From an uncultured delta proteobacterium (lineage in GTDB: Bacteria; Desulfobacterota; SM23-61), in the NCBI GenBank assembly GCA_963760605.1, contig CAVXFA010000058.1, forward strand, positions 14,790 to 78,789: DNA of 64,000 bases, written 5' to 3'. The number at the start of each line of letters is the position of its first letter. Positions within the stretch are counted from its first letter, which is position 1. The notes below the pieces were generated by a model that had not been told where the DNA came from, ran no database searches, and was given only the letters and a program-made list of their open reading frames with translations. Shown in pieces: positions 8,675-64,000 of this stretch. The position numbers and the translations under genes were made by a program.

Positions 8675-8770
8675 CGATTGCTCCTTGGAAAATTTTTTCT
8701 CAGCAAACCTGAGCACGCAGATCCAAGTGTTTGAAAATTATCATACAACCAGCCCTTTTTCAAGTCTTCA

Positions 8771-8799
8771 TTGACAAAAAAACTAGGTGTATATATATT
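8771..8799 (+). promoter_or_regulatory. Sigma-70-type promoter upstream of suhB
   Basis: TTGACA (8771-8776), 17 nt spacer, TATATT (8794-8799). Confidence 0.65.
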
Positions 8800-8906
8800 T
8801 ATTTATCCCCTCCCCGTCCGAAATATAGTGGAAAATACCCGAACAAAAAGGAAGTCTCAGAACCCTACCCGAAATCCAACTACCCCGAAAGGAATGATGG
8901 GAAAAC

Positions 8907-9686
8907 ATGGAATCCTTTGAACAGGTGGCCATCTTGGCTGCGAAAAAGGCCGGGCTTCTTTTAAAGAGGAGACTCGGCCAAAAAAGACGGGTGAACTATA
9001 AGGGGGCCGTAAATTTAGTCACGGAAATGGACCTCTTCTCTGAGAAACTCATCGTCTCCGAAATCCGCCAGCGCTACCCCAACCATAGCTTCCTGGCTGA
9101 GGAAAAAACCTCCACGCAGGAAAAGTCTCCCTACCGCTGGATTATCGACCCTTTGGACGGAACAACGAATTATGCCCATGGCTACCCGATCTTCTGCGTT
9201 TCCCTTGCTCTGGAAAAGGAAGGAGAGGTCATCCTCGGTGCGGTCTACGACCCTATGAGAGATGAACTCTTCCTGGCAAAGAAAGGAAAAGGAGCCCGCC
9301 TCAACGGGTGGAAAATTCATGTCTCCTCGACCGCGAAACTATCTCGAAGCCTGCTGGCTACAGGGTTTCCTTATGACCTGCGAGAGAGCCCGGTCAATAA
9401 CTTCGACCATTTTCGCAATTTCGCGCTGCGCGTCCAGGCGGTCAGAAGAGCCGGCTCTGCAGCCCTAGACCTATGCTATGTGGCCGCGGGGCGTTTCGAT
9501 GGATTTTGGGAGATGAAGCTGGGTCCCTGGGACATGGCGGCCGGAAGCCTGATCGTCAGGGAAGCCGGGGGAGAGGCAACTGATTTTCTAGGCAGGCGCC
9601 TCGGCTTGGATGGGAAACATGTCTTAGCCAGTAATGGAAAGATTCACCGGGAAATGATCCGGGTCTTGAAACTGGGACACCTTTAA
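8907..9686 (+). CDS. suhB: Inositol monophosphatase family protein
   Basis: LAEE, WIIDPLDGTTNYAHG, RRAGSAALDLCYVAAGRFDG, WDMAAG motifs. Confidence 0.95.
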   Translation: MESFEQVAILAAKKAGLLLKRRLGQKRRVNYKGAVNLVTEMDLFSEKLIVSEIRQRYPNHSFLAEEKTSTQEKSPYRWIIDPLDGTTNYAHGYPIFCVSLALEKEGEVILGAVYDPMRDELFLAKKGKGARLNGWKIHVSSTAKLSRSLLATGFPYDLRESPVNNFDHFRNFALRVQAVRRAGSAALDLCYVAAGRFDGFWEMKLGPWDMAAGSLIVREAGGEATDFLGRRLGLDGKHVLASNGKIHREMIRVLKLGHL

Positions 9687-47483: not shown

Positions 47484-48446
47484 TTAAAATGACTCTCCGC
47501 ACAATGAACCGCTCCAGCTCTTCCCTTCTTCCTGAATCAGGGGGCTGTCAATGAACTCTAAGGTCAACCCTTCCGGCGTGGTCAAATAGACTGCTTTCCC
47601 TCCCTGGTGGGGGCCTGCAATTATAGATTGGGGGGGGGCCTTAAAATTCACATTTCTTTTGGTCAGTTCAAGATAGAATTCTTCCAGGTTCTTAACCCCA
47701 AAAGCCACATGGGTGAATCCAACCCTCTGCATCTTCCACGGGGCTGCCGGCAGAATCTTAAAATTTACCGGCTGAACAAGTTTCAAACAACTGCCAGCCT
47801 GGGCTCGCAACAATACCCACCGTACCGAACTTTGGAGTCCATCTTTTGCGGGACTGTTTTTTTCAAGGGAAGGACCTCCTTGATCTGCGATCCCCAATCC
47901 CAAAACGTCCCGGTAGAAGAGGATCGATTCACCGATGTTCTCAACTACCATTCCTGGGTATAGAAACTCCTTTGTTGCTCCCTTTTGGTCAACTCGTTCT
48001 TCATTTTCCGGCTCGATGATTTTTAATAGTAGCCCATCCGGATCTCGCCAGGTAGACACTCGCCGTCCTGGGTAAGGCCCTTCCCCTATATCCCCTAGTT
48101 GTTTAGACCCTTTCTGTTTTTCTGCGGAAACTTCAAACGGAGAGAAGCTCTTCTCTCCCCCTCCCATGAAGGCACAATATAAGATCCCAACATGCAAGCC
48201 AGCATCCTTTTCCGGGAGAATCGTCTTTGGGTTAAAAAATCCAAACACCTCCATATGGCGATAGGGTGTCACCGATAAATATACAGTCCGCGTATGAAAG
48301 CCGGGTATACCGGTAATCTTATCAACCCACTCTCCTTTTCTTTCGGCATCGCTCAACACCGTAAAACCAAAGTTCTCTCGATAATATTTGATCGACTCAT
48401 CTAAGGCACTCACAGTCAAGGCGATGTGGCTTAACCCCAAAATCAT
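47484..48446 (-). CDS. Two-domain VOC (glyoxalase/epimerase) family protein
   Basis: LSHIALTV..RHMEV, and FTHVAFGV..TLEFID beta-alpha-beta-beta-beta modules. Confidence 0.8.
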   Translation of the reverse strand: MILGLSHIALTVSALDESIKYYRENFGFTVLSDAERKGEWVDKITGIPGFHTRTVYLSVTPYRHMEVFGFFNPKTILPEKDAGLHVGILYCAFMGGGEKSFSPFEVSAEKQKGSKQLGDIGEGPYPGRRVSTWRDPDGLLLKIIEPENEERVDQKGATKEFLYPGMVVENIGESILFYRDVLGLGIADQGGPSLEKNSPAKDGLQSSVRWVLLRAQAGSCLKLVQPVNFKILPAAPWKMQRVGFTHVAFGVKNLEEFYLELTKRNVNFKAPPQSIIAGPHQGGKAVYLTTPEGLTLEFIDSPLIQEEGKSWSGSLCGESF

Positions 48447-48580
48447 AACGATTTACCCATCCAGGAAGAATTAGACACTACGAGTTTTCAAAAGGCTTTA
48501 AACCTGCCCTCACCCAGACTTCCAAGGACACTATGCCAATTTCTTGATTGTCAATAAATTCCAGGGAAAAAGCGGGCCAA

Positions 48581-49420
48581 TTAATTAAAGACGGCCCCTC
48601 CATCTACATTAATGGCCTGGGCGGTAATTTCGTTGGCTTCCTCAGAGGCGAGAAAGACGACAGCGTTCCCGATGCCCTCTGGGGTTTGGGGTTTGCCCAG
48701 GGGAATTGTATTCTGGACCCTTGCTTTTAAGACCTCATCCGGGCTCATCCCTTTAAATGGCGGATAGGATTTTGACAACATCTTCGCAAGTTTCTCCCAC
48801 ATAGGGGTCCATATGACTCCTGGGCAGATGGTATTGACGTTCACGTTAAAGGGAGCTAACTGTACAGCGACTCCCTGAGTCAGTACGATCACACCTGCCT
48901 TGCTTGCACAATAGTGGGGAACATAAGCCAACCCCCTGCGTCCCCCGATGGAGGCGATATTGATGATCTTCCCCTTTTTCTGTCTCTTGAAATATGGAGC
49001 AATGGCCCGATTGCAAAGAAAGACTCCTTTCAGGTTGACATCGATGGTTTGGTCCCAATCCTCCTCGGAAATGTTCTCAAGCGACGGGGCTTCTGTCGAA
49101 TCCATCAGAGAACCAATTCCCAACACCCCAGCATTGCAAACCAGGATATCAATTCGGCCCATCTCTCTTATGCTGGTATCGATAAGCTTCTGACACTGGT
49201 CGGCCATGCGAACGTCAGTCTGGATAGCCAGGGATTTCTGCCCGATTCCCTTGACTTTAGCCGACACCTTTTCCGCCAGGCCCAGATTTACGTCACTGAC
49301 CACCACATGGGCCCCCTCTCTGGCTAGGCAAAGGCATATCCCCTCACCCAGGCCTCCGCCTCCTCCGGTTACGATGGCCACCTTCTCATCCAAGCGCTTT
49401 CCCATTCTCCATACCTCCAT
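48581..49420 (-). CDS. SDR oxidoreductase, acetoin reductase/2,3-butanediol dehydrogenase (BudC)-like
   Basis: TGGGGGLG, CNAG, HYCASK, NTICPGVIWTPMW (BudC-like PG..TPMW). Confidence 0.85.
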   Translation of the reverse strand: MEVWRMGKRLDEKVAIVTGGGGGLGEGICLCLAREGAHVVVSDVNLGLAEKVSAKVKGIGQKSLAIQTDVRMADQCQKLIDTSIREMGRIDILVCNAGVLGIGSLMDSTEAPSLENISEEDWDQTIDVNLKGVFLCNRAIAPYFKRQKKGKIINIASIGGRRGLAYVPHYCASKAGVIVLTQGVAVQLAPFNVNVNTICPGVIWTPMWEKLAKMLSKSYPPFKGMSPDEVLKARVQNTIPLGKPQTPEGIGNAVVFLASEEANEITAQAINVDGGAVFN

Positions 49421-49436
49421 TCGTTCATTGGAATGC

Positions 49437-49584
49437 TATTGACTTTTGCATAAATAATGCAACGAAGATTGCTATCCCGCAGACCCCCTGACCTTTATCC
49501 TCTCCCCCGTATTCGGGGGAGAGGGGAGGGTGAGAGGGACGTAACAAAATGCGTAATATTCCATTACTTTTGCAAAGCTCAATA
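49437..49584. mobile_element. MITE-like element: about 24-bp terminal inverted repeats enclosing a REP-like hairpin
   Basis: Left TATTGACTTTTGCATAAATAATG; right end reverse complement TATTGAGCTTTGCAAAAGTAATG; internal cctctccccc-gtattc-gggggagagg hairpin. Confidence 0.55.
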
Positions 49585-49671
49585 ATATACATATTTCTCC
49601 CCACTGTTCAGGGATCAGTCGTCCACGACCATGACGCTTCTGGTCATAACCTTTCCTTTTCCCTTAAAGAC

Positions 49672-50892
49672 TCAGATTAACAAAATGGGATTTTCCAGAC
49701 CGTGTTTAAGGTCCTGGAGGAACTTGGCTCCCATTGCCCCATCCACAATCCGGTGGTCAACGGCCAGAGTCATTTCCGCTATCGGTCGGATCACCACACA
49801 ATCATTCCGGACCACTGGCTTGTCCATGATCTTGCCAATGGACAAAATCCCGCCCTGGGGTGGGTTGAGAATCGAGGTGAAAAAAACAATGTCATACATC
49901 CCCAAGTTCGAGACGGTGAAGGTCCCCCGTTCGATCTCGTCGAGCGAGAGGCGGCCCTGACGGGCCCGCTCCACCAGATCTTTCCGTTCCTGGGCAATCT
50001 GCGAAAGTCTTTTCTGATCAGCCCTTTCCACGGCAGGAACGATCAGCCCGTCGTCCAGAGCCACGGCCAAGCCGATGTTGATGGTTCTTAGGATTTCAAC
50101 CTGATCACCGTTAAGCCTCGAGTTCAGTCGGGGATGATCCCGCAGGGTGGTAGCCACGGCTTTGATAAAAATGTCGTTTAGGGAAAATTTGGCCTCGCCC
50201 GCAGCCCCCATTTTCTCGCTTTGCGAATCCAGCCACCTTTTTACCTCTGTCATATCCACTTCCGTACCGAGGTTGAAATGGGGTGCATCATGAAAGCTTT
50301 GGGATAGGCGCCGGGCGATGGTTCGGCGCATGCTCGTCATGGGAATGATATCGGCAACTTCGACGAGTCCGAAAGGAGGACGCGGTTCAATTTTTAGCGG
50401 CTTGGCCTCGCTCAGATATTTTTCAATATCGGCCACGCTAATCCTTCCCGAAGGGCCCGAACCCGCTACAGAAGAAAGGTCAATACCCTTTTCTTTGGCC
50501 ATCTTTTTGGCCAGGGGTGAAGCAAAGACTCGTTCCCTGATTGGTGGAGCAAGGGGGGAGGAAATGGCTTCCTTTTTTTCGCTTACCTGAACCTTTTCTG
50601 GAATCGGCGCGTCTATTTTCTCTTTCGGGTGGAGGCGGAGGTCGATTTGCTCTTCCGCTCCTCCAATCATAGCGATCAACCCCCCTACCGGCACCTCGTC
50701 ACCCACCTTCACCAGAATCGCCTTCACCACCCCACTGGCGGGAGACTCGATCCCGTAGTTCACTTTGTCGGTTTCAATCTCCAGCAAGATCTCCCCGGCC
50801 TCTACTGGATCCCCCACCGATTTCAGCCATTTTAAAATCTTGGCCACGGTCATCGTATAACCCAGGTTGGGTATGGTTACTTCGGTTGCCAC
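49672..50892 (-). CDS. acoC: Dihydrolipoamide acyltransferase E2 (AcoC/PdhC-like), single lipoyl domain
   Basis: EIETDKVN lipoyl-Lys, FASPLAKK E3-binding domain, DHRIVDG catalytic motif. Confidence 0.88.
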   Translation of the reverse strand: MATEVTIPNLGYTMTVAKILKWLKSVGDPVEAGEILLEIETDKVNYGIESPASGVVKAILVKVGDEVPVGGLIAMIGGAEEQIDLRLHPKEKIDAPIPEKVQVSEKKEAISSPLAPPIRERVFASPLAKKMAKEKGIDLSSVAGSGPSGRISVADIEKYLSEAKPLKIEPRPPFGLVEVADIIPMTSMRRTIARRLSQSFHDAPHFNLGTEVDMTEVKRWLDSQSEKMGAAGEAKFSLNDIFIKAVATTLRDHPRLNSRLNGDQVEILRTINIGLAVALDDGLIVPAVERADQKRLSQIAQERKDLVERARQGRLSLDEIERGTFTVSNLGMYDIVFFTSILNPPQGGILSIGKIMDKPVVRNDCVVIRPIAEMTLAVDHRIVDGAMGAKFLQDLKHGLENPILLI

Positions 50893-50947
50893 AGTCTTTC
50901 TCCTTCTTAGAATCGCGAGGTCGAAAAGGGATTACTCTTTTTTTGCT

Positions 50948-51923
50948 TCAGAAGGACATCAAACCTCTGACCGCTTCGATAATTTTTTGCTCATTGGGAA
51001 ATGACGAAGTTTTCCAGGGCCAGGTTAAAAGGAATGGGGGTATCCAGGGAGGCAACTCGCCGGATCGGCGCATCCAGCTCATCCAGAACCTCTTCGGCAA
51101 TCAAAGCCCCAATCTCTCCCCCGACCCCCCCTCTCTTGGGTCCTTCCTCAACAATGACAACCCGATGAGTTTGCCTCACCGAATCCAGGATGGCCTTGGT
51201 GTCGAGCGGAACCAGGGTCCGGGGATCCAAAACAGTCACCTGGACCCCCTCTTTCCCCAGCTGCTCGGCGGCTTTCAACGCTTCCGACACCATCCGGCCA
51301 ATGGCCACGATGGTTACATCCTTGCCTTCACGGTGGATTCTGGCCTCCCCGAAAGGAATTAGGTATTCTTCTTCGGGTACCGGACCGGTCGTCTGGTAGA
51401 GTAACCTCCGTTCTATGAAGAGCACGGGGTTGTCATCTCGAATCGCTGTCTTCAGAAGCCCTTTGGCATCATAGGGCGTTGCGGGAACGGCTACCTTCAG
51501 GCCGGGGACGTTCATGAACCAAGCATCCAAGGTCTGGGAGTGCTGGGCCGCAAATCCCCCCCACTTCCCCGCGGGGGTCCGCACGACCAACGGAAAAGAA
51601 ACCTGCCCCCCGGACATGTACCGCAGCTTGGCGGCGGAATTACAGATTTGGTCCATGCACATCGGCAGGAGATCACAGAATTGAATCTCCGGAACCGGCC
51701 GCATGCCCATCATGGCAGCGCCCACGGCAACCCCCACGATCGTCTGTTCACAAATCGGGGTGTCAAAAACCCTCTCCCGGCCGAACTCGTCGATCAACCC
51801 CTTGCATACCGTAAAGGCATAGCCCAGCTCCACATCCTCCCCGTACACAAAGACTCTCTTATCCCGACGCATTTCTTCGGCCAGCGCCTCACACAAAGCG
51901 GTTGCATATTTGATCTCTCTCAT
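50948..51923 (-). CDS. acoB: TPP-dependent dehydrogenase E1 beta subunit (AcoB-like); one extra base near 50997
   Basis: DTPICEQ, PEIQF.D, AQHSQ, DPRTLVPLD. Removing one T restores VIPNEQKIIEAVRGLMSF* ending at 50948. Confidence 0.88.
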
Positions 51924-51944
51924 GGTTGTTTGGATCCCCCTCTC

Positions 51945-52910
51945 TTAGACGTAGACATCTTCTAAGGCAACTTTGATATCCGGCTGAGGACTGGCTTCGG
52001 CATAACGGATCGCTTCCTCTATGGCCTCCGCAACTTCCTTGTCAATCCGCTCGATTTCCTCCGGGCTCAATTCACCCTGCTTGATCAAAAGTAGCCGGGG
52101 ATCCCTCTTCTTCCAGGAATCCAGCTCCTCTTTGGTGCGATACGGCCCGTAGGGGGGATCTCCCCGGGAGTGTCCCAAAAAGCGGTAGGTCTTGCACTCC
52201 AGAAGAGAAGGACCTTCCCCTCTCCGGGCCCTCTCCACAGCCTCCTTCGCCGCCCTGTAGACGGCCAGCACGTCCATGCCGTCTACCACTACGCCCGGCA
52301 TGTTATAGCCCTTGGCCCGGACGGCAATATCCTCAACCGACGTGCTCTTTTTCACCGAGACGCTAATCCCGTAGAGGTTGTTTTCGCAGACGAAGACGAC
52401 CGGTAGTTTCCACAAAGACGACACGTTGTGGGCCTCGTGGAATGGGCCCCCGTTGGAGGCATTATCCCCAAAAAAGCAAACACAAACCTGCCCGCTCTTC
52501 TGCATCTTGATGGCCAACCCCACCCCCGCGGCGATCGGCATTCCTGCGCCCACAATCCCCATCGCGCCCAGCATGCCCCTTTTCACATCCACGATGTGCA
52601 TGGATCCCCCCTTACCCCGGCACAACCCCGTAGCCTTGCCAAAAAGCTCAGCCATCATGGCCTTCAAATCCGCTCCCCGCATTAAGCAATGTCCATGACC
52701 TCGATGGGTCGCGACCACCAGGTCACGCTCTTCCAGGGCTGCGGAAACCCCCACGGCGACCGCTTCCTGCCCCACCGAGGTATGCACGGCTCCGGTGATC
52801 TTGCCCTGCCGGAAAAATTCATCCACCTTCTCCTCAAACCGGCGAATCGTCATCAACCTCCGGTACCACTCCCGAAATTTCTCCTTCGATGTCTCTGTTG
52901 TTTTAGCCAT
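51945..52910 (-). CDS. acoA: TPP-dependent dehydrogenase E1 alpha subunit (AcoA-like)
   Basis: GAVHTSVGQEA, THRGHGH, GKGGSMH, FFGDNASN..F.EAHN TPP motif, TYRFLGHS. Confidence 0.88.
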   Translation of the reverse strand: MAKTTETSKEKFREWYRRLMTIRRFEEKVDEFFRQGKITGAVHTSVGQEAVAVGVSAALEERDLVVATHRGHGHCLMRGADLKAMMAELFGKATGLCRGKGGSMHIVDVKRGMLGAMGIVGAGMPIAAGVGLAIKMQKSGQVCVCFFGDNASNGGPFHEAHNVSSLWKLPVVFVCENNLYGISVSVKKSTSVEDIAVRAKGYNMPGVVVDGMDVLAVYRAAKEAVERARRGEGPSLLECKTYRFLGHSRGDPPYGPYRTKEELDSWKKRDPRLLLIKQGELSPEEIERIDKEVAEAIEEAIRYAEASPQPDIKVALEDVYV

Positions 52911-53619
52911 TTTTCTCCTCACAATCTAGGGGTAATTTTGAAATGGTTTTCCGCTAGCCTGAAGGTGCTTTTGGAATTCCTTTGCCCACCAAAATTTTAA
53001 ATATACCATATGACCGCTGGAAGTTCTAACCCTTTCTTTTAGAAATCATATCCTCAAAGGCTCCTCCGACCACAGAATCCCCTTGCTCCTGAATTTCTTT
53101 CCTGGCCCGGAGATTTTTCGGCATATTGTAATGCGGTACTCTGGGTAAGTTGAAGAATGGCCGTCTGGGTCGTGCATTGAACTTTGACTTGAATTCGTTT
53201 AGTAGTATACAAGTTTTGTGAAATCTTGCAATTTAAAATTTGGCTCATGCTCTATGAATCATGCATTTCCTATCCCTTGTAACCTCAACCTATACTATTT
53301 GAGATTAGGAGGGGAGCTATGGGCAAGCCTGGGCAATGATTGAAAATAATTTGGGATTGGCTCAGCCAGTATGCAGAAGGATCTCCTAAAATTCCTTGAC
53401 AGTATCCAGATTACGGGTAGACTATTGTTACCAATATATGCTATGATTTTTATAGCAATTTTCCCCACTCACCAAATGTGAAGCCGGAGTAAAACCCGGA
53501 GAGCCAAGGAATTGACTATTCATGCCAAGGTCCCCGCACAGTAAGGCCAGCCGGGAATAAAGAGAGATCGGGCCATTGCGAGATAAAGGATCTTTGGAAG
53601 AAACAGAAAGGAAGGGATC

Positions 53620-54477
53620 ATGATGAAAAAACAGGCATTCATCGCCGGGTTGACTCTGGTCGTAGTCGCGAGTGCTCTTCTGGTATTTTGGCTCTCTTCC
53701 AGAGCAAAGCCTCCTGAGCCGACGAGGCGAGAATCTTCGCTGCAACCTTCAACCGAGCGCCAGAGACCAGACATACAGTTCCAACCATCCCAAAAGGAGA
53801 CTGCTCAGGGGGAAGAAAAACGCGTGGCAGTACCACAGGGAAAGCCAAAAAGCTTGGCCAGGCAGCCGGATGGTGAAGCCTACTCCTTTGCCTCTGCAAC
53901 CTGGATGATGGAACAACAACGGATTGATCCCGGTGGTTTGACGAAGGAACATACCATGTCGTGGGTCTGGATCAAAGGGAACCGAAAAAGGGTGGATACC
54001 TTCAGAACGCTTGGGTCTTGGGCGGGAACCGCTGCCCAGCCAGCGGTCATTGTCTTTACGGACGAGAAGTATGTATACGAATACCTTCCTGATCGACAAA
54101 AGATGGTGAAGGTTCCTTGCCACGTAAGTTTGGAAGTTCTCTCTAAGAAATGGACCAAGAAAAGGAGTGAGGAAAGAGTCGGCCGTGAGGTGGTCGATGG
54201 GAAACTTTGCGATACCTACCTCCTGGTGAACGACGTGAGTGTCGCCGGCCTGGGCACGGTAGCAATGGAAGTCAAAGAATCTCGATGGCAAGGTCTGGTT
54301 CTCAAGAGCGTGTCCCGGACCCTCGGGGACAGCATTCGAGATATCCTCGTCACCGAACTGAAAGATGTCCGCCTGGACGTTCCCATCCCCGATGAGAAAT
54401 TCATCCTTCCGACAGGGGTGACGGTCCAGGAAATAAAAGCCCCTCCCGATGAAGCTATTCAGGCATCTATTCGTTGA
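53620..54477 (+). CDS. Membrane-anchored periplasmic protein with LolA-like/DUF4412-like beta-sheet domain
   Basis: N-terminal TM segment, Pro/Gln linker, WVWIKGNRKRVD, VYEYLP..KMVKV, GREVVDGKLCD, VPIPDEKFILP. Confidence 0.65.
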   Translation: MMKKQAFIAGLTLVVVASALLVFWLSSRAKPPEPTRRESSLQPSTERQRPDIQFQPSQKETAQGEEKRVAVPQGKPKSLARQPDGEAYSFASATWMMEQQRIDPGGLTKEHTMSWVWIKGNRKRVDTFRTLGSWAGTAAQPAVIVFTDEKYVYEYLPDRQKMVKVPCHVSLEVLSKKWTKKRSEERVGREVVDGKLCDTYLLVNDVSVAGLGTVAMEVKESRWQGLVLKSVSRTLGDSIRDILVTELKDVRLDVPIPDEKFILPTGVTVQEIKAPPDEAIQASIR

Positions 54478-54484
54478 AGCAATC

Positions 54485-55978
54485 CTACAGGATTCCGGCC
54501 TCGACGAGCCCTTTGTAGGCGATGGCGCAGCCAAGAAGGGTGACCACCACGGCGCTAGCCACGGGGAGGTAGCCGATCATCCTTCCCTCACCGGTGAAGC
54601 GTGTCATCATGGGTTTGGCAATGACCAGGAGTACCCCGATTGCCACCAGCACAAGGGCCAAACCCACGCTAAAGCTAACCAGGATCACTAGGCCCAGGGT
54701 AACTCTGTTCAAGGCGAAGGCGATCATCAACACTACCAATGCTTCGGGGCAAGGGACGATTCCTCCGGAGATACCCAAGGCGAAGAGGCTTCCGAGGGAG
54801 ACATCTGAGGCTTTTGAGGGTCGGGGAGTCTTTAGTATTTCCGATCCATGGGTGTGACCGCCGATGGCTTCATGCTGATGGGAATGCTCATGCCCATGGT
54901 CGTGGTGGTGGGGATACCCGTGCTCATGGCTGTGGCCTCCTGCCGAGGACCATCGTCTAAAAAGAAGCCAGATCCCCATCCCGGCCACAAGGACACCGGA
55001 GAGGGCTGTTAGCCAGGGGAAGAGCGTCTGAGGCATCACATACTGGGAGGCGAAGAGCATCCCTACCCCCAACACAAAAACTGAGAAGGTATGAGTCATC
55101 GTAACGATAACGCCTAGAAGGATGGCATCCCACACCCGGCCTTTCGTCCCCACCAGGTAAGCCGCCACGATGGTCTTACCATGCCCGGGGGTGAGGGCGT
55201 GCGCCGCCCCGAAGACGAAGGCGATCAGCAGGGGCGCTGCCAAGGACTTGATATCCCACCGAGGATTGTTGATCATATCTCTCAGCCGTTCGCGGAGGGT
55301 TCCCCCACCGAGGGTCGAGGCGATGACCGTTTCCTTGCCACCTTTCTGACCCGAGGCCCCTCCTCCGGCACTCCCAATCTCATCAGTACGGTAGCGCACC
55401 GTGACCGTCCGTTCGTTCTTTCTGCCGGCGAGGAGCGCCATTGCCTTTCCCTTTGAGTCTTGGGGAAGCGGGCGATCCTCAGGGATCATCCATTCCAGCA
55501 CTTTAACCCTTCCGGCAGCGATCAGCGAGGTCTTGAGACGGCCGGGAAGTGCCAGAAAGGTGCCGTCATAAAAAGCAATCCGGTGTTCGCCGGGGGAAAG
55601 GGCCGACAGATTCGAGACAAACCGGTACCGTCTAGCCCGAAGGCTATGGAAGTCGACGGACCCAATCAAATCAACCTTCTGACCATCCACCGTCAGGGAG
55701 AGGAAACCTTTTAGATTGGAGAGCATCAGGGTCTTGAACATCTCCTCCTCCTCCGGAGAGACCTTGCCATCTTTGTCGAGGTCCATCACCTGCAAATCGG
55801 CCGCCACTGCCCCCTCCTCCAGGTAAGTCGAATAGTTGATGACCACCTGATCGTCGAGGATCTTCACCTCGGTCCAATGATTGACGCCGGGATCAGCGAC
55901 AAAATTATGGGCGACGGATGGGGAGGGTAGGAACAATAGCAAAAAGAAAGGAAGAAGATACCTGAGAGGCCTGACCAT
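54485..55978 (-). CDS. Fusion of exported N-terminal domain (DUF1007-like) and RcnA/HoxN-type Ni/Co permease with His-rich loop
   Basis: Signal peptide ending SVA-HNF, AHALTPGHGKTIVAAYLVG, THTFSV, His-rich GHSHEHGYPHHHDHGHEHSHQHE, GGIVPCPEA. Confidence 0.85.
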   Translation of the reverse strand: MVRPLRYLLPFFLLLFLPSPSVAHNFVADPGVNHWTEVKILDDQVVINYSTYLEEGAVAADLQVMDLDKDGKVSPEEEEMFKTLMLSNLKGFLSLTVDGQKVDLIGSVDFHSLRARRYRFVSNLSALSPGEHRIAFYDGTFLALPGRLKTSLIAAGRVKVLEWMIPEDRPLPQDSKGKAMALLAGRKNERTVTVRYRTDEIGSAGGGASGQKGGKETVIASTLGGGTLRERLRDMINNPRWDIKSLAAPLLIAFVFGAAHALTPGHGKTIVAAYLVGTKGRVWDAILLGVIVTMTHTFSVFVLGVGMLFASQYVMPQTLFPWLTALSGVLVAGMGIWLLFRRWSSAGGHSHEHGYPHHHDHGHEHSHQHEAIGGHTHGSEILKTPRPSKASDVSLGSLFALGISGGIVPCPEALVVLMIAFALNRVTLGLVILVSFSVGLALVLVAIGVLLVIAKPMMTRFTGEGRMIGYLPVASAVVVTLLGCAIAYKGLVEAGIL

Positions 55979-56168
55979 GAATCGATCCCCCTGGTGAATA
56001 GTTTCTCTGCACATCTTTATAAGCGCTCCTTTTCTCTTCACCCTCTTCCTCTTCCCCTTGAACCCCACCTTCCACGCAATGCTTTCGGCGGTGGCACCAG
56101 CAGCGTTGACCCGCAGCGATCTGTGCTCCAGGTGGCCGATCGGTCCACAAGCGGCAACCTTCTGTGTC

Positions 56169-59100
56169 TCAGGGGTTGACCGACGCTCTCCGACGCCGCC
56201 ATCTTTCGATCAACTCGTCGAGCAGGGTGTAGACTACGGGCACCACGGCGAGGGTCAAAAGAGTAGAAGTGATCAGGCCACCGATGACCGCCACCGCCAT
56301 TGGCTGGCGCATCTCGGCTTCGCTCCCCAGGCCCAGGGCCACCGGCAGCATGCCAAAGATCATGGCCATGGTCGTCATCAGGATGGGGCGAAGCCGGATG
56401 GGGGCCGCCGTCAGCACCGCCTCCTGTCTGGAGAGCCCCCTTTCGCGCAGGGTCTTGGTGTAATCCACCAGGAGGATGGCGTTCTTCGTCACCAGGCCCA
56501 TCAGGAGAACGATGCCGATCAGCGACATCAGGTTGATCCTCATCCCGGTGAGGAAAAGGGCCACCAGCGCTCCGATGATCGCCAGTGGCAGGGAGAGCAT
56601 GATGGTAAAAGGGTGCAGGAATGAGCCGAACAGGGAGGCCAGGATCATGTAGATAAAGATCACGGATAGGATCAGGGCGCCGATCAGAGCCTTGAAGGAC
56701 TCCTCCATCTGAGCCACCTCGCTGGCAAACCCGACGCTGTATCCCGGGGGGAGTTTGAGTCGAGCCAGGCCAGCCCTGATATCTCGGGCCACATCCCCTA
56801 CCGGCCGTCCGGCCACCTGCGCGTAGACGGTGACCTGTCTCTGTCGGTTAACCCGCTCGATACGGGCAGGACCGCTGGCAGGAACCACCGACGCTACATC
56901 CCGCAAATACACCCGTTTTCCCTGGGAGGTAGTAAAAAAGAGATTTTCAATGCCCTTGCTGGAATCGCGCTGGGTCGGGATGAGGCGGACGCGCACATCG
57001 TACTCCCGGTTATACTCTTTGTATCGGGTGGCGACCCCGCCCTCGACCATAGTCCGCAGAACACTGGCCAGCTCCCCCATGCCCAGGCCATAGTCTCCGG
57101 CTTTGGCACGGTTGATCACCACGTCGTACTCCGGCTGGCCCCGCTGGATCGAGGCGAAGACGTCCGCTGTGCCCTTCACTCCCCGCACGATCTCCGCGAC
57201 GCTCCACCCCAGGCGATTGGCGGTATCGGTTCTGGGACCACGAATGAACACCTCGATGGGCGCCTGATAGGATGCCGCTCCCACCCCACCGGCGGTGGTG
57301 AAGCTGATCCTTGTCCCGGCGATCGGGGGCAGGGTGCGCCGAAGTTCAGCGATGATCTCTTCTTGAGACCGGCGCCGTTCTCGAAGCGGCTTCAGCTTCA
57401 CCCCCAGAGTTGCGGTATTGATCTCGCCGCCAAACACCGAACCGATGGCCGTGAACACCGTCTCGACCTCCGGCCGATCCACCAAGGAGCGGAACAAGAT
57501 GGCTGTGGCGTTTACCATATCGTACATCCGCGCGCCGGGATCCTTCTCCAGAAAGATATTGAATTCACCAGCATCTACCGGCGCCAAGAACTCCCGGCCG
57601 ATGAAGGGAAGCAGGGCAAGGCTGGCTACGAGGATGGCGAGAGCGATCGCCAGGACGCGGCCGCGATGGGCCAGTACCCATTCCAGAAAACCCCGATACC
57701 CCCTATCCAGGCGGTCGTACAGTTCGATCCAGCCGGCAAAGAGTCGGCCAATCCTGGTCCGCCGCCGCTCGGTCTTGTCGAATACCCGCATGAAGCGGGA
57801 AGAGAGCATCGGGTCCAGGGTGAAGGCGACAAACAAGGAGACCAGGACCGCCGCGGCCACAGTCAGGCCGAACTGGTGATAAAAGCGCCCCACCGCCCCA
57901 GACATGAAGGCCACCGGTACAAAGACGGCGACGATAGCAAGGGTGGTGGCATTGACCGCCAGGCCTACCTCAGAGGTGCCACGCTGGGCCGCCGTCACCG
58001 GATCCTCCCCCGCCTCCATATGACGAAAAATGCTCTCCCGCACCACCACCGAATCGTCAATCAAAAACCCGATGGCCAGGGATAGGCCCAACAGGGTCAT
58101 GACGTTTATGCTATACCCCAGCGCATAGAGCAGGGCGAAGGTCGCGATAACTGATGTGGGGAGGGCCAGGGCGGCGATGATGGTGCTTCGCCAATCCAGC
58201 ATAAACAGGAACACAACCACAATGGCCAGGATGCCGCCCAGGATGAGACTGTTCCCTACATCCCGCACGGAATTGACGATACGGGTAGAGGCATCCCGCA
58301 GGGTGGTAATCTGCACGCCGCTGGGGAGGGTGGAAGTGAGCTTCTTCAGCTCGGCGTGGACTCGGCGGCCCACACTCACGGTATTGCTGCCCGACTGCCG
58401 GTGAATGGAGAAGATCACCGCCTTGCCCTTGTTGATGTCTGCGGCGATCCGGACGTCTTTAAATGCATCTTGAATCATGGCCAGATCGCGGAGATAAATG
58501 GGGACACCGTTGGTCTGGGCCACCACCATATCGAGGATGTCGTCCAGGCTGGCAAATTCCCCCTTCGTGCGGAGCAGCACCTCGCCAGTCCGTTCCGTGA
58601 TGAGTCCACCGGGGGCGCTTTGATTCTCCTCCGCCAACCGATCAATCACCTGCTTGGTAGACAGCCCGTTGGCTGCCAGGCGTTCAAAATCCAGGGAGAC
58701 ATGAATTTCTCGTTCGATGCCGCCCAGGACCTCCACGGAGGCCACGCCGTCCAGCGCCTCCAGGCGAGGCTTGACGTCTTCCAGAGCGATGTGCCGGAGT
58801 TGATCCGGCATTACGAGATCGCTGCTCAACCCCAAGAGCATGATCGGCTCGGCGGCCGGATCGTATCGGCGGATGCTGGGTTCGGTGATCCCCTGCGGCA
58901 ACTGGGGACGGATGGCGGAAAGCGCCTCGCTCACCCGTAGCGGCGCTTCGACCAGAGGGGTTTGCAGGGTAAATTCGACGATTACCCGGGAGAGTCCGAC
59001 GCTGGAGACCGATCTCACCTGTTTCAGACCCTTCAGGGAGCTGACTGCATCCTCGATTGGCTGGGTGACCAGCTTCTGCATTTCCTCAGGGCTGGCCCCG

Positions 59101-59255
59101 GAATACTGGGTGGTCACGAGGACCACGGGCGGGAACACGTCAGGGAAGAGCTCGACCCCCAGCAAGGAAAGCGACACCAGCCCCAGGACCCCCAGGGCTA
59201 GGATTACCATGGTGGTGAAGACAGGATATTTGATGGCCTGGTTCGATAGGTACAT
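56169..59255 (-). CDS. RND efflux transporter permease (AcrB/HAE1-like)
   Basis: 1028 aa, [35 protein letters not shown] proton-relay residues. Confidence 0.95.
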
Positions 59256-60254
59256 CAGCGGATGACTCTCACCCTTTGGCCATCATTCACCATACGGGCG
59301 CCAATGGTGACCACTTCATCCCCTTCCTGCACGCTCCCTTTCGGCCGGTAGGCGGTGTGCTCCCCGCTCGTGCTGGGGTTCCGGGATCCCGCCGGGTTCA
59401 GAACCTGGACCCACCTGTTATCGGAGGCCCCTCGCATTCACCTCCAGTTCATGCACGGTATTATCTCTGACAACATAGACAAGGGCGGACTCGTCCCCCG
59501 CGATTAGCGCCTCCTTCGGCACCATTATGACATTTTCCAGCTTTTCCTTCACCACCCCGACCATGGCAAACATGCCAGGCTTCAGGCGGTGGTCCCGGTT
59601 GTCAATGGTAACTTCAGCCCTGGCCATGCGGCTGCTCACGTCCAGGCTGGGGCTAACGCTGGTAATCTTGCCCTTGAAAATGGCCAATGGAAAGTGATCC
59701 AGCGGATAGGCCTCAAACCTGACCCGGGCCTCCATGCCCACTTTCATAAACGTCGTAAGCGTCTCGGGCACGCCCACCTGGACCTTCACTACTTCCGTAT
59801 CCGCGATGGCAAAGAGCGGCTTCGCGCCAGCTCTGTCCAAGGCTATGGCAATGTCCCCCGGTTCACAGGATCGCTGTTCGACGATGCCGGAGATGGGCGA
59901 TCTGATTGAGACGGAATCCCCGCCGTTACCTTGGACTACCGCCAGGATGTCGTCTTTTTTGACCCTGCCTCCCTCTTTCACCCTGACCTCTTGAACTTGT
60001 CCGGTCACCCTGGAAAAGACATCCACCCTGGCCTGGGGAACGACCGTGCCGCCCATGGAGATTAACTCTTCAAGGTCTCCCCGGATGACCTTAGCCACCA
60101 ACACCGGGAAGGCACTCTCCTGGTCCGAGGCTGTGATCCCCGCTTTCTCTACGACGTGTCGGGATTGGTATACCCGATACCCAATAAGGATCACCAGGAG
60201 CAGGAGCCCCACTAAGGCCGTGATCAATCTTTTGCTGGCCGTAATACGTGCCAT
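59255..60254 (-). CDS. RND periplasmic adaptor (MFP) lacking the alpha-helical hairpin; frameshift near 59427
   Basis: N-terminal TM segment, lipoyl-like halves SRVTGQVQEVRVKEG..ILAVV and IRSPISGIV, LKPGMFA. The C-terminus ..VLNP..VQEGDEVVTIG..VNDGQRVRVIR is in ORF 59255-59437. Confidence 0.87.
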
Positions 60255-60359
60255 TTTGTCTATCTCCCTGGCCGCTGGGCGTGTCGGTCCGCTTTATCGC
60301 ACCGTCTTCTCATACTTCTCTCGAGTCATATACCCGCCTCTAATGATGGTCTCTTGCTG

Positions 60360-61034
60360 TCAAGGGATGTTAGGCACCTGCTTCTTGTACTCCCCTGGAG
60401 CCATATACCCGCTGGGCCTGCTTGCCCAGGCCCGGTGCACGTTTTCGACGTAAAGGGCCTTGAGCGTCGTCAGTTCATTTTGCAGGGCTTGGCCCTTATC
60501 CGCAGTGAAGGCGGGAGCATCAGGAAAACGCGCGCGGCCCGCTTCGAATGTCTTGATCGCCTTCTCCATCGCCTTCACTTCCCACGGTCCCACCCCGGCT
60601 CTTAGGTCTTTTTCTACATTGAAGCGTTTGCCCAGAAGCGCCCTCTCGCGACAAACATCGACGAGCTGCTGATACACCTCTACTGGCGCCCCTGACTGAC
60701 CATGAAGCTCTAGGGCTTTCTCCAGCTCGGTGATAGCTTTGCCGTATATCTCCTCCAATTTTTCGCGATTCTGTTCGCCTTTCGCCTCCCTCAGGTATGC
60801 TGCCCCCAGGAGGAAGTGGACCCGGGCCGCTTGAGGATTGGCTGCCAGGGCTTCCTGGAGGGCGACCTTCGCCTCCTTAAGCGAGGCTGCATCGTCCTTG
60901 GCCAAAAGGCGCTCGGCCCTCTCAAGCGGGGTTTCCTTCGGTTTCCCGCATCCCAAGAGGACCAGGGCCAAAATCAGGGGGAAAAAGGCCGTGATCAATC
61001 TTTTGCTGGCCGTAATACGTGCTATTTTGCCCAT
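60360..61034 (-). CDS. TPR-like lipoprotein, copy 2 (chimeric N-terminus)
   Basis: Lipobox LVLLG-C, TPR-like helices (NPQAARVHFLLG.AY, ELEKALEL); paralogue of 61087-61761. Confidence 0.8.
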   Translation of the reverse strand: MGKIARITASKRLITAFFPLILALVLLGCGKPKETPLERAERLLAKDDAASLKEAKVALQEALAANPQAARVHFLLGAAYLREAKGEQNREKLEEIYGKAITELEKALELHGQSGAPVEVYQQLVDVCRERALLGKRFNVEKDLRAGVGPWEVKAMEKAIKTFEAGRARFPDAPAFTADKGQALQNELTTLKALYVENVHRAWASRPSGYMAPGEYKKQVPNIP

Positions 61035-61086
61035 CTCCCTAACTGCTGGCGTGTCGGCCACGCCTTGATTTTCCTCCGTGTGGCAG

Positions 61087-61761
61087 CTATTCGTCGCGCT
61101 TCTGCTTCTGGTACTCTTCCGGAGACATATACCCGGCGGGCCTGCTTGCCCAGGCATTGTATACGTTTTGAGTGTAAAGGGCCTTGAGCTCCGCCAATTC
61201 CTCCTGAAGGGCTTTGACTTTCTCCCCAGCGAAGGCAGGATCGCTAGGGAAACGCGCGCGGCCCTGCTCGAATGTCTTGATCGCTTTCTCCATTGACTTC
61301 ACTTCCCACGGTCCCACCCCGACTTTTACGTCTTTTTCTGCATTGAAGCGTTTGGGCAGAAGCGCCCTCTCGCGACAAGCATCGACGAGCTGCTGATAAA
61401 CCTCCATCGGCACCCCTGACTGACCGTTAAGCTCCAGGGCCTTCTCCAGCTCGGTCGTAGCGTTGCCGTATATCTCCTCCAATTTGTTTCGGTTCTTTTC
61501 ACCTTTCGCCTCTCTCATGTATGCTGTCCCCAGAAGGAAGTGAACCCGGGCCGCCTGAGGATTGGCTGCCAGGGCTTCCTGGAGGGCGACTTTCGCCTCC
61601 TTAAGCGAGGCAGCATCGTCCTTGGCCAAAAGGCGCTCGGCCCTCTCAAGTGGTGTTTCCTTCGGTTTCCCGCATCCCAAGAGGACCAGGGCCAAAATCA
61701 GGGCGAGAGAGGTGGCTGTCAAAATCCATTTTCCCTTTCGTGTCAATTCCCCATCTCCCAT
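61087..61761 (-). CDS. TPR-like lipoprotein, copy 1
   Basis: RKGK n-region, lipobox LVLLG-C; the first 49 residues from the Cys are identical to copy 2. Confidence 0.8.
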   Translation of the reverse strand: MGDGELTRKGKWILTATSLALILALVLLGCGKPKETPLERAERLLAKDDAASLKEAKVALQEALAANPQAARVHFLLGTAYMREAKGEKNRNKLEEIYGNATTELEKALELNGQSGVPMEVYQQLVDACRERALLPKRFNAEKDVKVGVGPWEVKSMEKAIKTFEQGRARFPSDPAFAGEKVKALQEELAELKALYTQNVYNAWASRPAGYMSPEEYQKQKRDE

Positions 61762-61798
61762 TCAGCGAGGTCCCATCCCGAGGGGACCCTGGCGCTGT

Positions 61799-61839
61799 AA
61801 TAAAAAGGCCCTTCCACCCGAAACAGGCGGAAGGGCCTT
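61799..61839 (-). terminator. Rho-independent terminator after lactonase-family copy B
   Basis: AAGGCCCTTCC..GGAAGGGCC hairpin followed by TTTTTATT on the minus strand, preceded by a second hairpin GCCTTCCC/GGGAAGGC. Confidence 0.75.
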
Positions 61840-61887
61840 GCAAAGGCCTTCCCCTATTAAGGGAAGGCGCTTAAACAAAAAGCAATA

Positions 61888-62727
61888 TCAATCAACCCGT
61901 ACGACCCCCTCAGCTACCTTGGGGAACATGTCGAAGAAAGCTGGATCGTGGCCGGGAACAAAGGTCGTACCGGTCCCCATGATCTTCTTGATCTTGTCAT
62001 AGGAATCCAGCATCTGCACCAGGTCGTAGCCGAACCCCAGCGGAATCCCCTCTTTCAGGTTCCGGTAGGTGTAGCAGGCGTCGCCAGCAATCGGAATGAC
62101 TCCCTTCCGGGTATTAACAGCCGCGGTCTGGGTGCCGGCGGTGTGCCCTGGGGTTAAATAGAGTGAAATACCCGGGATTACATCGGCGGCATCCCCGTTA
62201 ACAACTTTCACTCTGCCTTCCCAGTTCAGCCGAATCATCGCGAGGACGTCCGCCGGAACGAAACCGGCCATGGTGTGCTTCTTCATGGTAATCTCACCAG
62301 CGGCGAACTCGATCTCCTTCTTCTGTACCCAGAAGGTTGTTGCGGGCAGGTCACTCGTTCCACCCGCATGGTCCCAGTGCATGTGCCCGATAAAGGCGTC
62401 TGAAATCCGATCAGGAGTAGTCCCTACCTTCCGCAGGTTATCGGCGATGCTGGTCCAGGCACCCGCCGGTGCTCCCCACTTCATGCCCAGGGCGACATCG
62501 TTATAGCCGGTATCGAACATCATCTCCTTACCACCGCCCTTAATATAGCAGTACGAGAAGGGAACAGTCATCGTTTTGCCACGGTCAGTAGCAAATAGGA
62601 TAGCATCAGTTGGATAGTTTTCCAGGCGGCTGTACCACATTGAATAGATCTCATACTGTGCAGCCAGAGCAGTCCCGACAAACCCCAGGCACAGCAGCAT
62701 AGCCATTATCGCAATACCTCGCTTCAT
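61888..62727 (-). CDS. Exported N-acyl-homoserine-lactonase-family metallo-hydrolase (AiiA-like), copy B
   Basis: Signal peptide (MKRGIAIMAMLLCLGFVGTALAA), HMHWDH, TPGHT, GDACY, PGHD. Confidence 0.85.
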   Translation of the reverse strand: MKRGIAIMAMLLCLGFVGTALAAQYEIYSMWYSRLENYPTDAILFATDRGKTMTVPFSYCYIKGGGKEMMFDTGYNDVALGMKWGAPAGAWTSIADNLRKVGTTPDRISDAFIGHMHWDHAGGTSDLPATTFWVQKKEIEFAAGEITMKKHTMAGFVPADVLAMIRLNWEGRVKVVNGDAADVIPGISLYLTPGHTAGTQTAAVNTRKGVIPIAGDACYTYRNLKEGIPLGFGYDLVQMLDSYDKIKKIMGTGTTFVPGHDPAFFDMFPKVAEGVVRVD

Positions 62728-62987: not shown

Positions 62988-63311
62988 GAACAATTTGAGA
63001 ACAATTTGAGAGTATTCTGAAAGAGGTGGCTATCAACATCGCTAGGTCCTCCACTCGCTAATAAAATCACCTATTTCCCAACGCTTAGCTTTGCCAAGCG
63101 AAAAAAATATTTGCGTGCACCCCACTTTTAAGCGGTCCAGATCTCTAAAAAACTTCAGTCTCATCCCAAAAGCCCTTGGATAAGGCTTGGGGTTTCATCC
63201 ATCCTTCTCAATCCGACTCAGCGCTGGCCAACCGATGTCACTCCCAGGAGGTTGAACAAATCTCCATCTCCCATTCAGCGAGGTCGCATCCCGCAGAGCC
63301 CCTCGTTCTGT

Positions 63312-63352
63312 AATAAAAAGGCCCTTCCACCCGAAACAGGTGAAAGGGCCTT
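63312..63352 (-). terminator. Rho-independent terminator after lactonase-family copy A (duplicate of 61799-61839)
   Basis: Near-identical hairpin plus T-run. Confidence 0.72.
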
Positions 63353-63399
63353 GCAAAGCCTTCCCCGGTTAAGGGAAGGCGCTTAAACAAAAAACAATA

Positions 63400-64000
63400 T
63401 TAATCAACCCGCACGACCCCCTCAGCTACCTTGGGGAACATGTTGAAGAAATCCGGGTCGTGGCCGGGGACAAAGGTCGTGCCGGTTCCCATGAGCTTTT
63501 TGATCTTATCATAGGAATCCAGCATCTGCACCAGGTCGTAGCCAAATCCCAGCGGAATCATCTCTTTCAGGTTCCGGTAGGTGTAGCAGGCGTCGTTCAC
63601 AACCGGAATGATTCCCTTGCGGGTAGTAAAAGTCGCGCTCTGGGTGCCGGCGGTGTGCCCTGGGGTGTAATATAGGCTAACACCCGGGAATACATTGGCG
63701 GCATCCCCGTTAACAACTTTCACCCTGCCTTCCCAGTTCAGCCGTATCATCGCCAGGACGTCTGCCTCAACGAAACCGGCCATGGTGTGCTTCTTCTGGG
63801 TAATCTCACCGGCGGCGAACTCGATCTCCTTTTTCTGTACCCAGAAGGTTGAAGCTGGCAGGTCACCCGTTCCACCAGCATGGTCCCAGTGCATGTGACC
63901 GATAAATACGTCTGAAATCCGATCAGGGGAAGTTCCTATCTTCCGCAGGTTATCGGCAATGCTGGTCCAGGCACCCGACGGTGCCCCCCACTTCATGCCC
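63400..64000 (-). CDS. N-acyl-homoserine-lactonase-family metallo-hydrolase, copy A (5' part outside the window)
   Basis: HMHWDH, TPGHT, NDACY, PGHD; about 24 differences from copy B over 198 aa by manual comparison. Confidence 0.85.
   Translation of the reverse strand, partial: GMKWGAPSGAWTSIADNLRKIGTSPDRISDVFIGHMHWDHAGGTGDLPASTFWVQKKEIEFAAGEITQKKHTMAGFVEADVLAMIRLNWEGRVKVVNGDAANVFPGVSLYYTPGHTAGTQSATFTTRKGIIPVVNDACYTYRNLKEMIPLGFGYDLVQMLDSYDKIKKLMGTGTTFVPGHDPDFFNMFPKVAEGVVRVD

Follow-up and report, generated by a model that had tools for sequence, protein, structure and literature searches.

The tip-to-tip model of tripartite pump assembly has one main cited exception, adaptors that lack the hairpin. 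BesA of Borrelia burgdorferi, the only such adaptor that we found described in the literature (PMC4446572), works with the TolC-like protein BesC (PMC3807786, PMC4446572). Anglerases are β-sandwich domains (Ang-1 or Ang-2) that have a histidine as the first mature residue (His1), are fused to HupE/UreJ-2 permeases and bind Cu/Ni (Franco Cairo et al., Nat Commun 2025, PMC12537917). Here we report a locus where a resistance–nodulation–division (RND) pump operon with a hairpin-less adaptor also contains a gene that joins a His1 domain to a permease of the NicO family. It is located in a 64,000-nt stretch of DNA (called here the window; positions 14,790 to 78,789 of contig CAVXFA010000058.1, assembly GCA_963760605.1) from an uncultured delta proteobacterium. 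We tentatively read the locus as a nickel/cobalt-handling module of the cell envelope.

Gene set and conservation of the cassette

The locus holds a set of six genes: an exported hydrolase of the metallo-β-lactamase (MBL) fold; a lipoprotein similar to tetratricopeptide repeat (TPR) proteins; the hairpin-less adaptor; an RND pump of the hydrophobe/amphiphile efflux type (HAE1); a protein made of a signal peptide, a His1 domain and a NicO/RcnA-type permease (the NicO fusion); and a convergently transcribed protein of probable LolA fold. In the window the MBL-fold and TPR-like genes are both present in two tandem copies. Open reading frame (ORF) listing and family scans confirmed all named genes and their strands, including the minus-strand run of two TPR genes, adaptor, RND pump and NicO fusion described in the original prediction, which was made from the sequence alone. 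The features, in coordinates of the window, are as follows.

53620–54477, plus strand: membrane-tethered protein of probable LolA fold, 285 aa; no Pfam family; converges on the operon
54485–56068, minus strand: NicO fusion, 527 aa; PF03824 NicO at residues 281–511; His-rich loop
55253–55909, minus strand: periplasmic N-terminal domain of the NicO fusion, 219 aa; conserved His1 and EF-hand loop
56169–59255, minus strand: RND inner-membrane pump, HAE1-like, 1028 aa; ACR_tran, 914 bits
59255–60254 (first listed as 59418–60254, 278 aa), minus strand: BesA-like hairpin-less adaptor, 332 aa after correction; matches to TIGR01730 and 4KKS
60360–61034, minus strand: TPR-like lipoprotein, copy 2; LLGC lipobox; marginal TPR_11 and TPR_14 matches
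61087–61761, minus strand: TPR-like lipoprotein, copy 1, 224 aa; LLGC lipobox with Gly at +2; TPR_14, TPR_19
61805–61868, minus strand: double hairpin with U-run (intrinsic terminator or attenuator) between the MBL gene and the operon
61888–62727, minus strand: exported MBL-fold hydrolase, copy 1, lactonase-like, 279 aa; Sec signal peptide, HxHxDH
63318–63352 (taken more broadly, about 63318–63380), minus strand: second copy of the double hairpin, after MBL copy 2
63400–64000, minus strand: exported MBL-fold hydrolase, copy 2, which leaves the window (279 aa in L016, positions 190–1029)

The order MBL, TPR-like lipoprotein, adaptor, RND pump, NicO fusion and convergent gene (∼257–288 aa) recurs in four other loci: L010 (the same as L021), L012, L015 and L022. 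Identity of the adaptors is 64–85% across the three loci measured (L010, L012 and L015); the flanks of the cassette are unrelated between loci (NiFe hydrogenase; LptD with aco-like genes; M20 peptidase with a tripartite ATP-independent periplasmic transporter). An unannotated gene of 208–228 aa occupies the TPR position in every related locus, with a faint TPR_19 match in one of them, and an unannotated convergent gene of about the size of the LolA-fold gene adjoins the NicO gene in all four. The stop codon of the RND gene overlaps the NicO start codon in L010, L012 and L022, thus suggesting translational coupling. In L015 an extra ORF of 195 aa with no known family lies between the two genes (8591–9178). 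This ORF and a 195-aa ORF of L018 were considered as split N-terminal domains of the fusion and rejected, as hhalign found no relation.

The gene for the LolA-fold protein served as a marker of the cassette. It was found in only two other species-level genomes and was absent from 16 other genomes of the same family in the GTDB taxonomy and from 400 genomes sampled across the phylum. The cassette occurs in a few sediment bacteria; it is rare but stable. Locus L021 (CAVQYV010000003.1, a 560-kb contig; 66% adaptor identity) is labelled candidate division NC10 by its submitter. Close relatives of the window proteins are labelled Thermodesulfobacteriota. This points to a transfer of the cassette between phyla or to an error in one of the labels.

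None of these loci has a linked gene for an outer-membrane factor (OMF). The original prediction had found no TolC-like gene in the window; a scan of the whole 105.6-kb contig gave no match to OEP/TolC either, and there is no OMF gene within 10 kb of the cassette in L010, L012, L015 and L022. The synteny search suggested there has a supportive outcome, the gene set being kept together in L010/L021, L012, L015 and L022 with no tolC-like gene linked to it. The genome of the window has seven OMF genes. Of its seven RND loci, five are next to an OEP gene, so the absence at the cassette stands out; that no OMF is linked is a genuine, conserved feature and an unusual one for this genome. The two other cassette genomes carry four and five OMF genes elsewhere, and use of a channel in trans is fully possible.

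Downstream of the LolA-fold gene, at 47484–52922, there are acoA/acoB/acoC-like genes for E1-α, E1-β and E2, a short-chain dehydrogenase/reductase gene and a glyoxalase-fold gene. The L012 cassette is likewise flanked by three aco-like genes (E1-α, E1-β and E2). No families of anti-phage defence were matched by PADLOC.

The hairpin-less adaptor and the RND pump

The two lipoyl halves of the adaptor are ∼8 residues apart, where its nearest hairpin-bearing relatives (33–36% identity) have ∼70 more residues in the alignment. The protein matches TIGR01730 with 124 bits (cut-off 94.9), the best stretch covering profile positions 136–284 only; HlyD_D23, HlyD_3 and Biotin_lipoyl_2 match as well. It is anchored by an N-terminal transmembrane (TM) helix and has lipoyl, β-barrel and membrane-proximal domains, the C-terminal membrane-proximal part being regained by the frame correction described below. 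The closest solved homologue is BesA (4KKS; profile E 5.6e-39, single-sequence E 1.2e-16). Residues 36–278 align with BesA residues 14–258, colinear across the lipoyl junction, with a 4-residue gap; the alignment with MacA falls in two pieces around the MacA hairpin.

The hairpin is missing throughout the adaptor clade (∼40 clusters, 57–90% identity), which rules out a private deletion. Profile coverage, lipoyl spacing, the colinear alignment with BesA and the clade-wide absence all bear out the hairpin-less adaptor of the original prediction. The clade has a specific insert of ∼20 aa in the C-terminal membrane-proximal domain (NPAGSRNPSTSGEHTAYRPKG). In a tree of 38 sequences it forms a long, fully supported branch apart from other short adaptors (301–308 aa); the deep branches are not resolved in this tree, and the supported ones require at least two changes in hairpin state. 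A single-protein query for close adaptor relatives in species genomes returned only an unrelated Coriobacteriia match.

Two other lineages of hairpin-less adaptors (303–308 aa) sit in operons with the order adaptor, RND, PII-like, OEP (L017, 5601–11211; L019, 2301–8037). With these operons, the BesA–BesC pair and 4–7 OMF genes in each cassette genome, lack of a hairpin does not imply lack of export across the outer membrane; this step of the original prediction does not hold. The P-II-like gene between pump and channel encodes 96 aa and is conserved in both operons.

A paralogous sister subclade of the cassette adaptor (∼60% identity) is encoded by solitary genes with no RND pump nearby (L018, 8001–8990; L028, 8001–8996; L029). 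Their conserved neighbourhood includes Nitro_FeMo-Co-domain, CbiA/ParA-Fer4 and NifU genes; L018 additionally has Fur, CDF and FeoAB.

An extra base at 59433 shifts the frame and ends the adaptor ORF of the window early. In three public runs, the near-identical contigs are each one base shorter at this position. The C-terminus of the protein (...VQEGDEVVTIGARMVNDGQRVRVIR) resumes in the other frame at 59255–59437 and, once the frame is corrected, the adaptor TGA overlaps the ATG of the RND gene (TGATG). The 333-aa read-through product matches ∼40 relatives across 100% of its length (full-length ones have 329–357 aa, most of them 330–337). The alignment has a single surplus residue at the frame junction. 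Without the extra base the true length is 332 aa, in place of the 278 aa initially assigned to this gene. We attribute the frameshift to an assembly artefact because of the three runs without the base and because of further splits in the same assembly. The essential LptD gene located just outside the window is broken into two ORFs (480 and 265 aa; L016, 1555–3688); four of the six other RND genes of the genome are fragmented, with two to six pieces or an internal stop (contigs C36, C73, C76 and C86). Single-base indel errors are many in this assembly. A pseudogene was ruled out on the same grounds, namely the base missing in three runs and the split LptD and RND genes.

The pump matches ACR_tran across positions 2–1020 of 1021. 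It scores 829 bits with NF033617 (RND_permease_2, HAE1-type) versus 504 bits (503.6; cut-off 701) with the CusA/CzcA model TIGR00914. These scores and the AcrB-like TM4 motif IDDSVVV rule out a pump of the heavy-metal efflux (HME) type. The HpnN model gives 22 bits, and the closest solved structure is MdtB (9LYQ, 490 bits). The proton relay is intact, as originally predicted: D400/D401 (IDDSVVV), K925 (TKNAIL) and R954/T961 (RLRPILMT) are present, which we take to be the TM4 Asp–Asp, TM10 Lys and TM11 Arg/Thr of the AcrB motifs.

The NicO fusion and its partners

The fusion is the sole NicO gene in the genome. It consists of a signal peptide, a periplasmic domain with His as the first mature residue and the NicO permease; the gene caller places its start at M31 (55978). 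The permease scores 64.4 bits with PF03824 NicO (cut-off 27.7) and has the motifs HALTPGHGKT and PCPEAL. The best NCBIfam match is NF007454 (the RcnA-type efflux subfamily) with 137 bits, under the cut-off of 195. The His-rich central loop reads HSHEHGYPHHHDHGHEHSHQHE; it is predicted to be cytoplasmic as in RcnA, given an N-terminus outside and three helices before the loop.

With the cleavage site of the signal peptide read by eye, the mature N-terminus is A-HNFxADPGVxHWTE in all 19 clade sequences. Also invariant in the 19 are His1, H11, E14, the Asp/Glu residues of the EF-hand and H88. The EF-hand loop is a conserved canonical loop of 12 residues (DLDKDGKVSPEE), with Asp1, Gly6 and Glu12 invariant. 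Among 1.84 billion representatives, a profile of the outer domain retrieved no more than 20 proteins, and 8 of 10 scanned against Pfam have a NicO domain. Several relatives without NicO are short standalone proteins beginning A-HESPVDH.

Only EF-hand and dockerin loops were matched when the outer domain was compared with Pfam even at E 10; DUF1007 and other known families were tried with no Pfam family match, and a sequence search of the PDB gave no match. DUF4331 had no match among the cassette ORFs in the Pfam scan; PF14224 (DUF4331) had none in the genome of the window or in 150 genomes of the phylum, but the controls of this search gave no match either. The structure model of the full-length fusion has a mean predicted local distance difference test score (pLDDT) of 52, with 70–82 over most of residues 40–160. 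Here the outer domain is modelled as a β-sandwich with two helices; its top PDB fold matches are the zinc-binding proteins ZrgA and PA4063, both weak (E 9e-3, template modelling score (TM-score) ∼0.46). Both structure models, of the fusion and of the LolA-fold protein, rest on alignments of only 19 close sequences, which accounts for their low confidence. By analogy with anglerases, the outer domain most likely binds metal.

Outgroup NicO fusions occur without any RND pump. The nearest (L023, 8001–13288) is followed by NikR and a ZnuA/ABC/ABC-3 importer, and a CHASE/PAS histidine kinase gene is located upstream; L023 is a candidate locus for nickel homeostasis with the fusion at its centre. 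A second (L025, 1284–5947) comes directly after a ZnuABC-type importer. From His1, this outgroup context and the anglerase parallel, a nickel-type metal would be the likeliest substrate of the permease. Uptake agrees with the NikR/ZnuABC surroundings and the anglerase parallel (PMC12537917) no less well than the export assumed in the original prediction.

The convergent protein has an N-terminal TM helix, a disordered Pro/Glu/Gln-rich linker of ∼60 aa and a β-rich domain of ∼190 aa. It has 34 relatives at 53–100% identity and no Pfam or NCBIfam family match. Its AlphaFold model (pLDDT 52) has 36 PDB matches at E ≤ 1e-3 (best 1.3e-7, TM-score 0.43–0.52). These are led by LolA proteins, followed by LprG and ependymin-related proteins, whose folds are LolA-like and lipid-binding; RseB, NE2245 and DUF1329 come just below the threshold. 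The LolA fold is probable for this protein, in agreement with the earlier label ‘LolA-like’ at the level of fold. Such a fold suggests a hydrophobic ligand.

The TPR-like lipoproteins show only generic TPR similarity: copy 1 scores 27 bits with TPR_14 and 25.6 bits with TPR_19, just over the cut-offs. Gly at +2 after the lipobox Cys would, by the E. coli rule, direct the lipoprotein to the outer membrane. The MBL hydrolase matches Lactamase_B (45.7 bits); AiiA, 4-pyridoxolactonase and AttM are the best NCBIfam models, all under their cut-offs, and the nearest solved structures are a glyoxylase-II-type protein and acyl-homoserine-lactone lactonases.

Between the MBL gene and the operon, a 16-bp stem is followed by TTTATT. 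The double hairpin is conserved in six sequences from five loci, with compensatory changes in 6 of 26 pairs. In every locus it is 3′ of the MBL gene, and ∼45 nt are left before the TPR start. This conserved element, preceding the TPR–adaptor–RND–NicO operon, defines the MBL gene as a separate transcription unit. The operon may depend on read-through of the double hairpin, which may be an attenuator setting the ratio of MBL to operon expression. An Rfam scan of the locus for riboswitches or other known RNAs gave no matches at E ≤ 1.

Both gene pairs of the window are tandem duplications. The TPR copies have 83% DNA identity (60378–60677 versus 61102–61401) and 80% protein identity; the unit of MBL gene plus terminator has 85% DNA identity (61744–62102 versus 63257–63614). 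The 5′ end of TPR copy 2 is chimeric: 60985–61049 repeats 60214–60278, which takes in the first ∼15 codons of the adaptor gene, at 91%. This repeat marks a duplication breakpoint within the 5′ end of the adaptor gene. Related loci carry a single TPR and a single MBL copy, so both duplications, which are nested, are lineage-specific.

Possible function and known systems

The reading that we prefer, and hold tentatively, is a coupled envelope module for handling Ni/Co where two transporters work together. Joint function is suggested by the tight conserved coupling of the NicO-type permease to the RND operon; the metal is named from the NikR linkage in the outgroup. The permease would move Ni(II)/Co(II) across the inner membrane and its His1 domain would hold the ion on the periplasmic side, where the RND pump with its adaptor would remove the metal or a metal–ligand complex from the periplasm or the outer leaflet. 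Given the HAE1-type pump and the probable LolA fold, the cargo may be a metal–ligand complex or an amphiphile, not a bare ion. It could exit through a trans-encoded TolC-like channel, as in BesAB with BesC; alternatively, it could pass to the LolA-fold protein on its long tether and to the TPR lipoprotein directed to the outer membrane. The MBL hydrolase, a constant neighbour in a separate transcription unit, would be a metal client or would act on the organic ligand.

This reading draws on gene order kept in five loci with unrelated flanks and on the overlaps of RND stop with NicO start and of adaptor stop with RND start. The fusion is the only NicO gene, its His1 and EF-hand are invariant in 19 of 19 sequences, and the few distant relatives of the outer domain are nearly always NicO fusions as well. 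Outgroup fusions stand beside NikR/ZnuABC, and the top fold matches, ZrgA and PA4063, bind zinc. The solitary adaptor subclade lies near genes for Fe–S and metal cofactors, in one locus with Fur, CDF and FeoAB. An OEP gene adjoins five of seven RND loci and is conservedly absent from this one. Experimentally, His1 β-sandwich domains fused to metal permeases bind Cu/Ni (PMC12537917).

Several points weigh against it. The pump is not of the HME type (TIGR00914 at 504 bits versus 829 bits for the HAE1-type model; AcrB-like DD pair in TM4), and the LolA fold, as modelled, would favour a hydrophobic ligand over a bare ion. Both structure models have low confidence (pLDDT 52) and the match to ZrgA/PA4063 is weak (E 9e-3, TM-score 0.46). 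The NikR/ZnuABC context of the outgroups is as compatible with uptake as with efflux. Neither the Rfam scan nor the gene lists of related loci showed a riboswitch or a metal-responsive regulator at the locus. Finally, transporters in one operon need not share a substrate.

If they do not, the operon would encode two independent transporters, a BesAB-like pump for amphiphiles or drugs with a TolC-like channel in trans and a separate Ni/Co permease; the TPR, LolA-fold and MBL proteins would be accessory or coincidental. This is a serious possibility, although we consider it doubtful. The pump is of the HAE1 type with an intact relay, adaptors of the BesA type work with an OMF (PMC3807786), operons of other hairpin-less adaptors include OEP genes, each cassette genome has 4–7 OMF genes, and the outgroup NicO fusions do without an RND pump. 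Yet the six genes stay together at 64–85% adaptor identity in differing contexts, with overlapping stop and start codons, and the families of the LolA-fold protein and the N-terminal domain look largely limited to cassette-type genes (20–34 relatives each; LolA-fold marker absent from 416 other genomes). Another reading is a role of the pump in export of lipids or lipoproteins to the outer membrane: the pump would flip or extract a lipid, the LolA-fold protein would ferry it and the TPR lipoprotein would receive it, in the manner of MmpL and LppX, with the NicO fusion unrelated. Mycobacteria offer examples of RND pumps paired with a LolA-fold protein (MmpL pumps, LppX), and a LolA-superfamily fold on a ∼60-residue linker able to span the periplasm next to an HAE-type pump would suit such a role. 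We nevertheless regard it as improbable; the pump is AcrB/MdtB-like and not MmpL- or HpnN-like (HpnN 22 bits), the LolA model has low confidence, and the tight translational coupling to NicO is left unexplained.

The direction of metal flow may also be the opposite. In a metal-acquisition cycle the pump would export a lipophilic chelator with the LolA-fold protein as carrier, the MBL hydrolase would open the returning chelate, His1 would catch Ni/Co and NicO would import it. Iron release from trilactone siderophores by periplasmic esterases provides an established precedent, the MBL hydrolase is lactonase-like and exported, and the LolA fold binds acyl or hydrophobic ligands; outgroup fusions adjoin NikR and ZnuABC-type importers, and the anglerase precedent is one of capture and uptake (PMC12537917). 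We find this cycle unlikely: neither chelator biosynthesis genes nor TonB-dependent receptors occur in any of the five loci, the best score of the NicO part is with the RcnA efflux subfamily and the MBL gene has its own terminator. That terminator also tells against the version of the original prediction, where the NicO part exports Ni/Co/Zn, the tethered domain metallates the Sec-exported MBL hydrolase and no outer-membrane step occurs. The MBL gene is always adjacent to the operon and, with its Sec-type signal peptide and HxHxDH site, its product must acquire metal outside the cytoplasm. Export for metallation is known for copper P-type ATPases. However, MBL-fold lactonases normally use Zn, not Ni/Co, and RND pump, adaptor, TPR and LolA-fold proteins are left without a role, so that we give this version little credence.

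A more radical form of coupling is also rather unlikely: the hairpin-less adaptor would join the RND trimer and the His1/NicO permease into one inner-membrane machine without an outer channel, a periplasmic Ni/Co relay. Permease, pump, LolA-fold carrier and TPR lipoprotein carrier would exchange Ni/Co, either as such or in a lipophilic complex, and envelope proteins, for instance the co-conserved MBL hydrolase, would be supplied with metal or cleared of it. If such a channel-free relay exists, RND systems of diderm bacteria would gain a new functional class.

Ni and Co are needed for hydrogenases and carbon monoxide dehydrogenase in anaerobic sediment bacteria and are scarce there because of sulfide. 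Should the coupling of the preferred reading prove functional, RND efflux of the organic type would be tied to Ni/Co handling in these bacteria, and three unannotated protein families would be given roles.

Among known systems, the metal-efflux assemblies of Cupriavidus, where CzcD, CzcP or CnrT feed CzcCBA/CnrCBA, and the CusF–CusB–CusA relay likewise combine an inner-membrane metal exporter, or a periplasmic metal carrier that hands over, with an RND pump and adaptor. Their pumps are of the HME family, with hairpin- or helix-bearing adaptors and a dedicated OMF; the cassette has an HAE1-like pump, a hairpin-less adaptor and no linked OMF. E. coli RcnA, which acts in Ni/Co efflux with periplasmic RcnB, is from the same NicO family, shares the HALTPGHGKT and PCPEAL motifs and has a cytoplasmic His-rich loop. 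Function with a periplasmic partner is plausible here too. The fusion differs in its score (137 bits, under the subfamily cut-off of 195), in a periplasmic part that is fused and unrelated to RcnB, and in having no RcnR regulator. ZrgA of Vibrio cholerae and PA4063 of Pseudomonas aeruginosa are also periplasmic, consist of a β-sandwich plus helix and serve a membrane transporter (PMC9820375, PMC8561739). ZrgA, however, is a free protein serving an ABC-type system; sequence similarity to the N-terminal domain of the fusion is absent, and the fold match is a weak one from a low-confidence model.

Anglerase fusions have the same signal-peptide cleavage exposing an invariant His1, a β-rich extracytoplasmic domain and direct fusion to a Ni-type permease. 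Here the permease is of the NicO/RcnA type, the domain has an EF-hand loop and no detectable Pfam relation, metal binding is predicted, and the fusion is set within an RND operon. The cassette is the only case that we found of an RND operon apparently translationally coupled to a NicO-type permease with an anglerase-like His1 domain.

BesABC is the nearest counterpart of the pump. BesA (PDB 4KKS/4KKT/4KKU) likewise has no α-hairpin and has its lipoyl halves joined directly, and its RND partner is HAE1-like; the periplasmic gates of its channel BesC are relaxed. Its dedicated TolC-like protein is BesC (PMC3807786, PMC4446572), whereas the cassette loci have none within 10 kb; the cassette adaptor has the C-terminal insert of ∼20 aa, and its operon carries NicO, TPR and LolA-fold partners. 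The cassette adaptors thus form a well-defined second hairpin-less lineage, from a different phylum, to which at least two more lineages with OMF genes in the operon are added. Together these lineages offer comparative material on how pumps reach, or do without, an outer channel.

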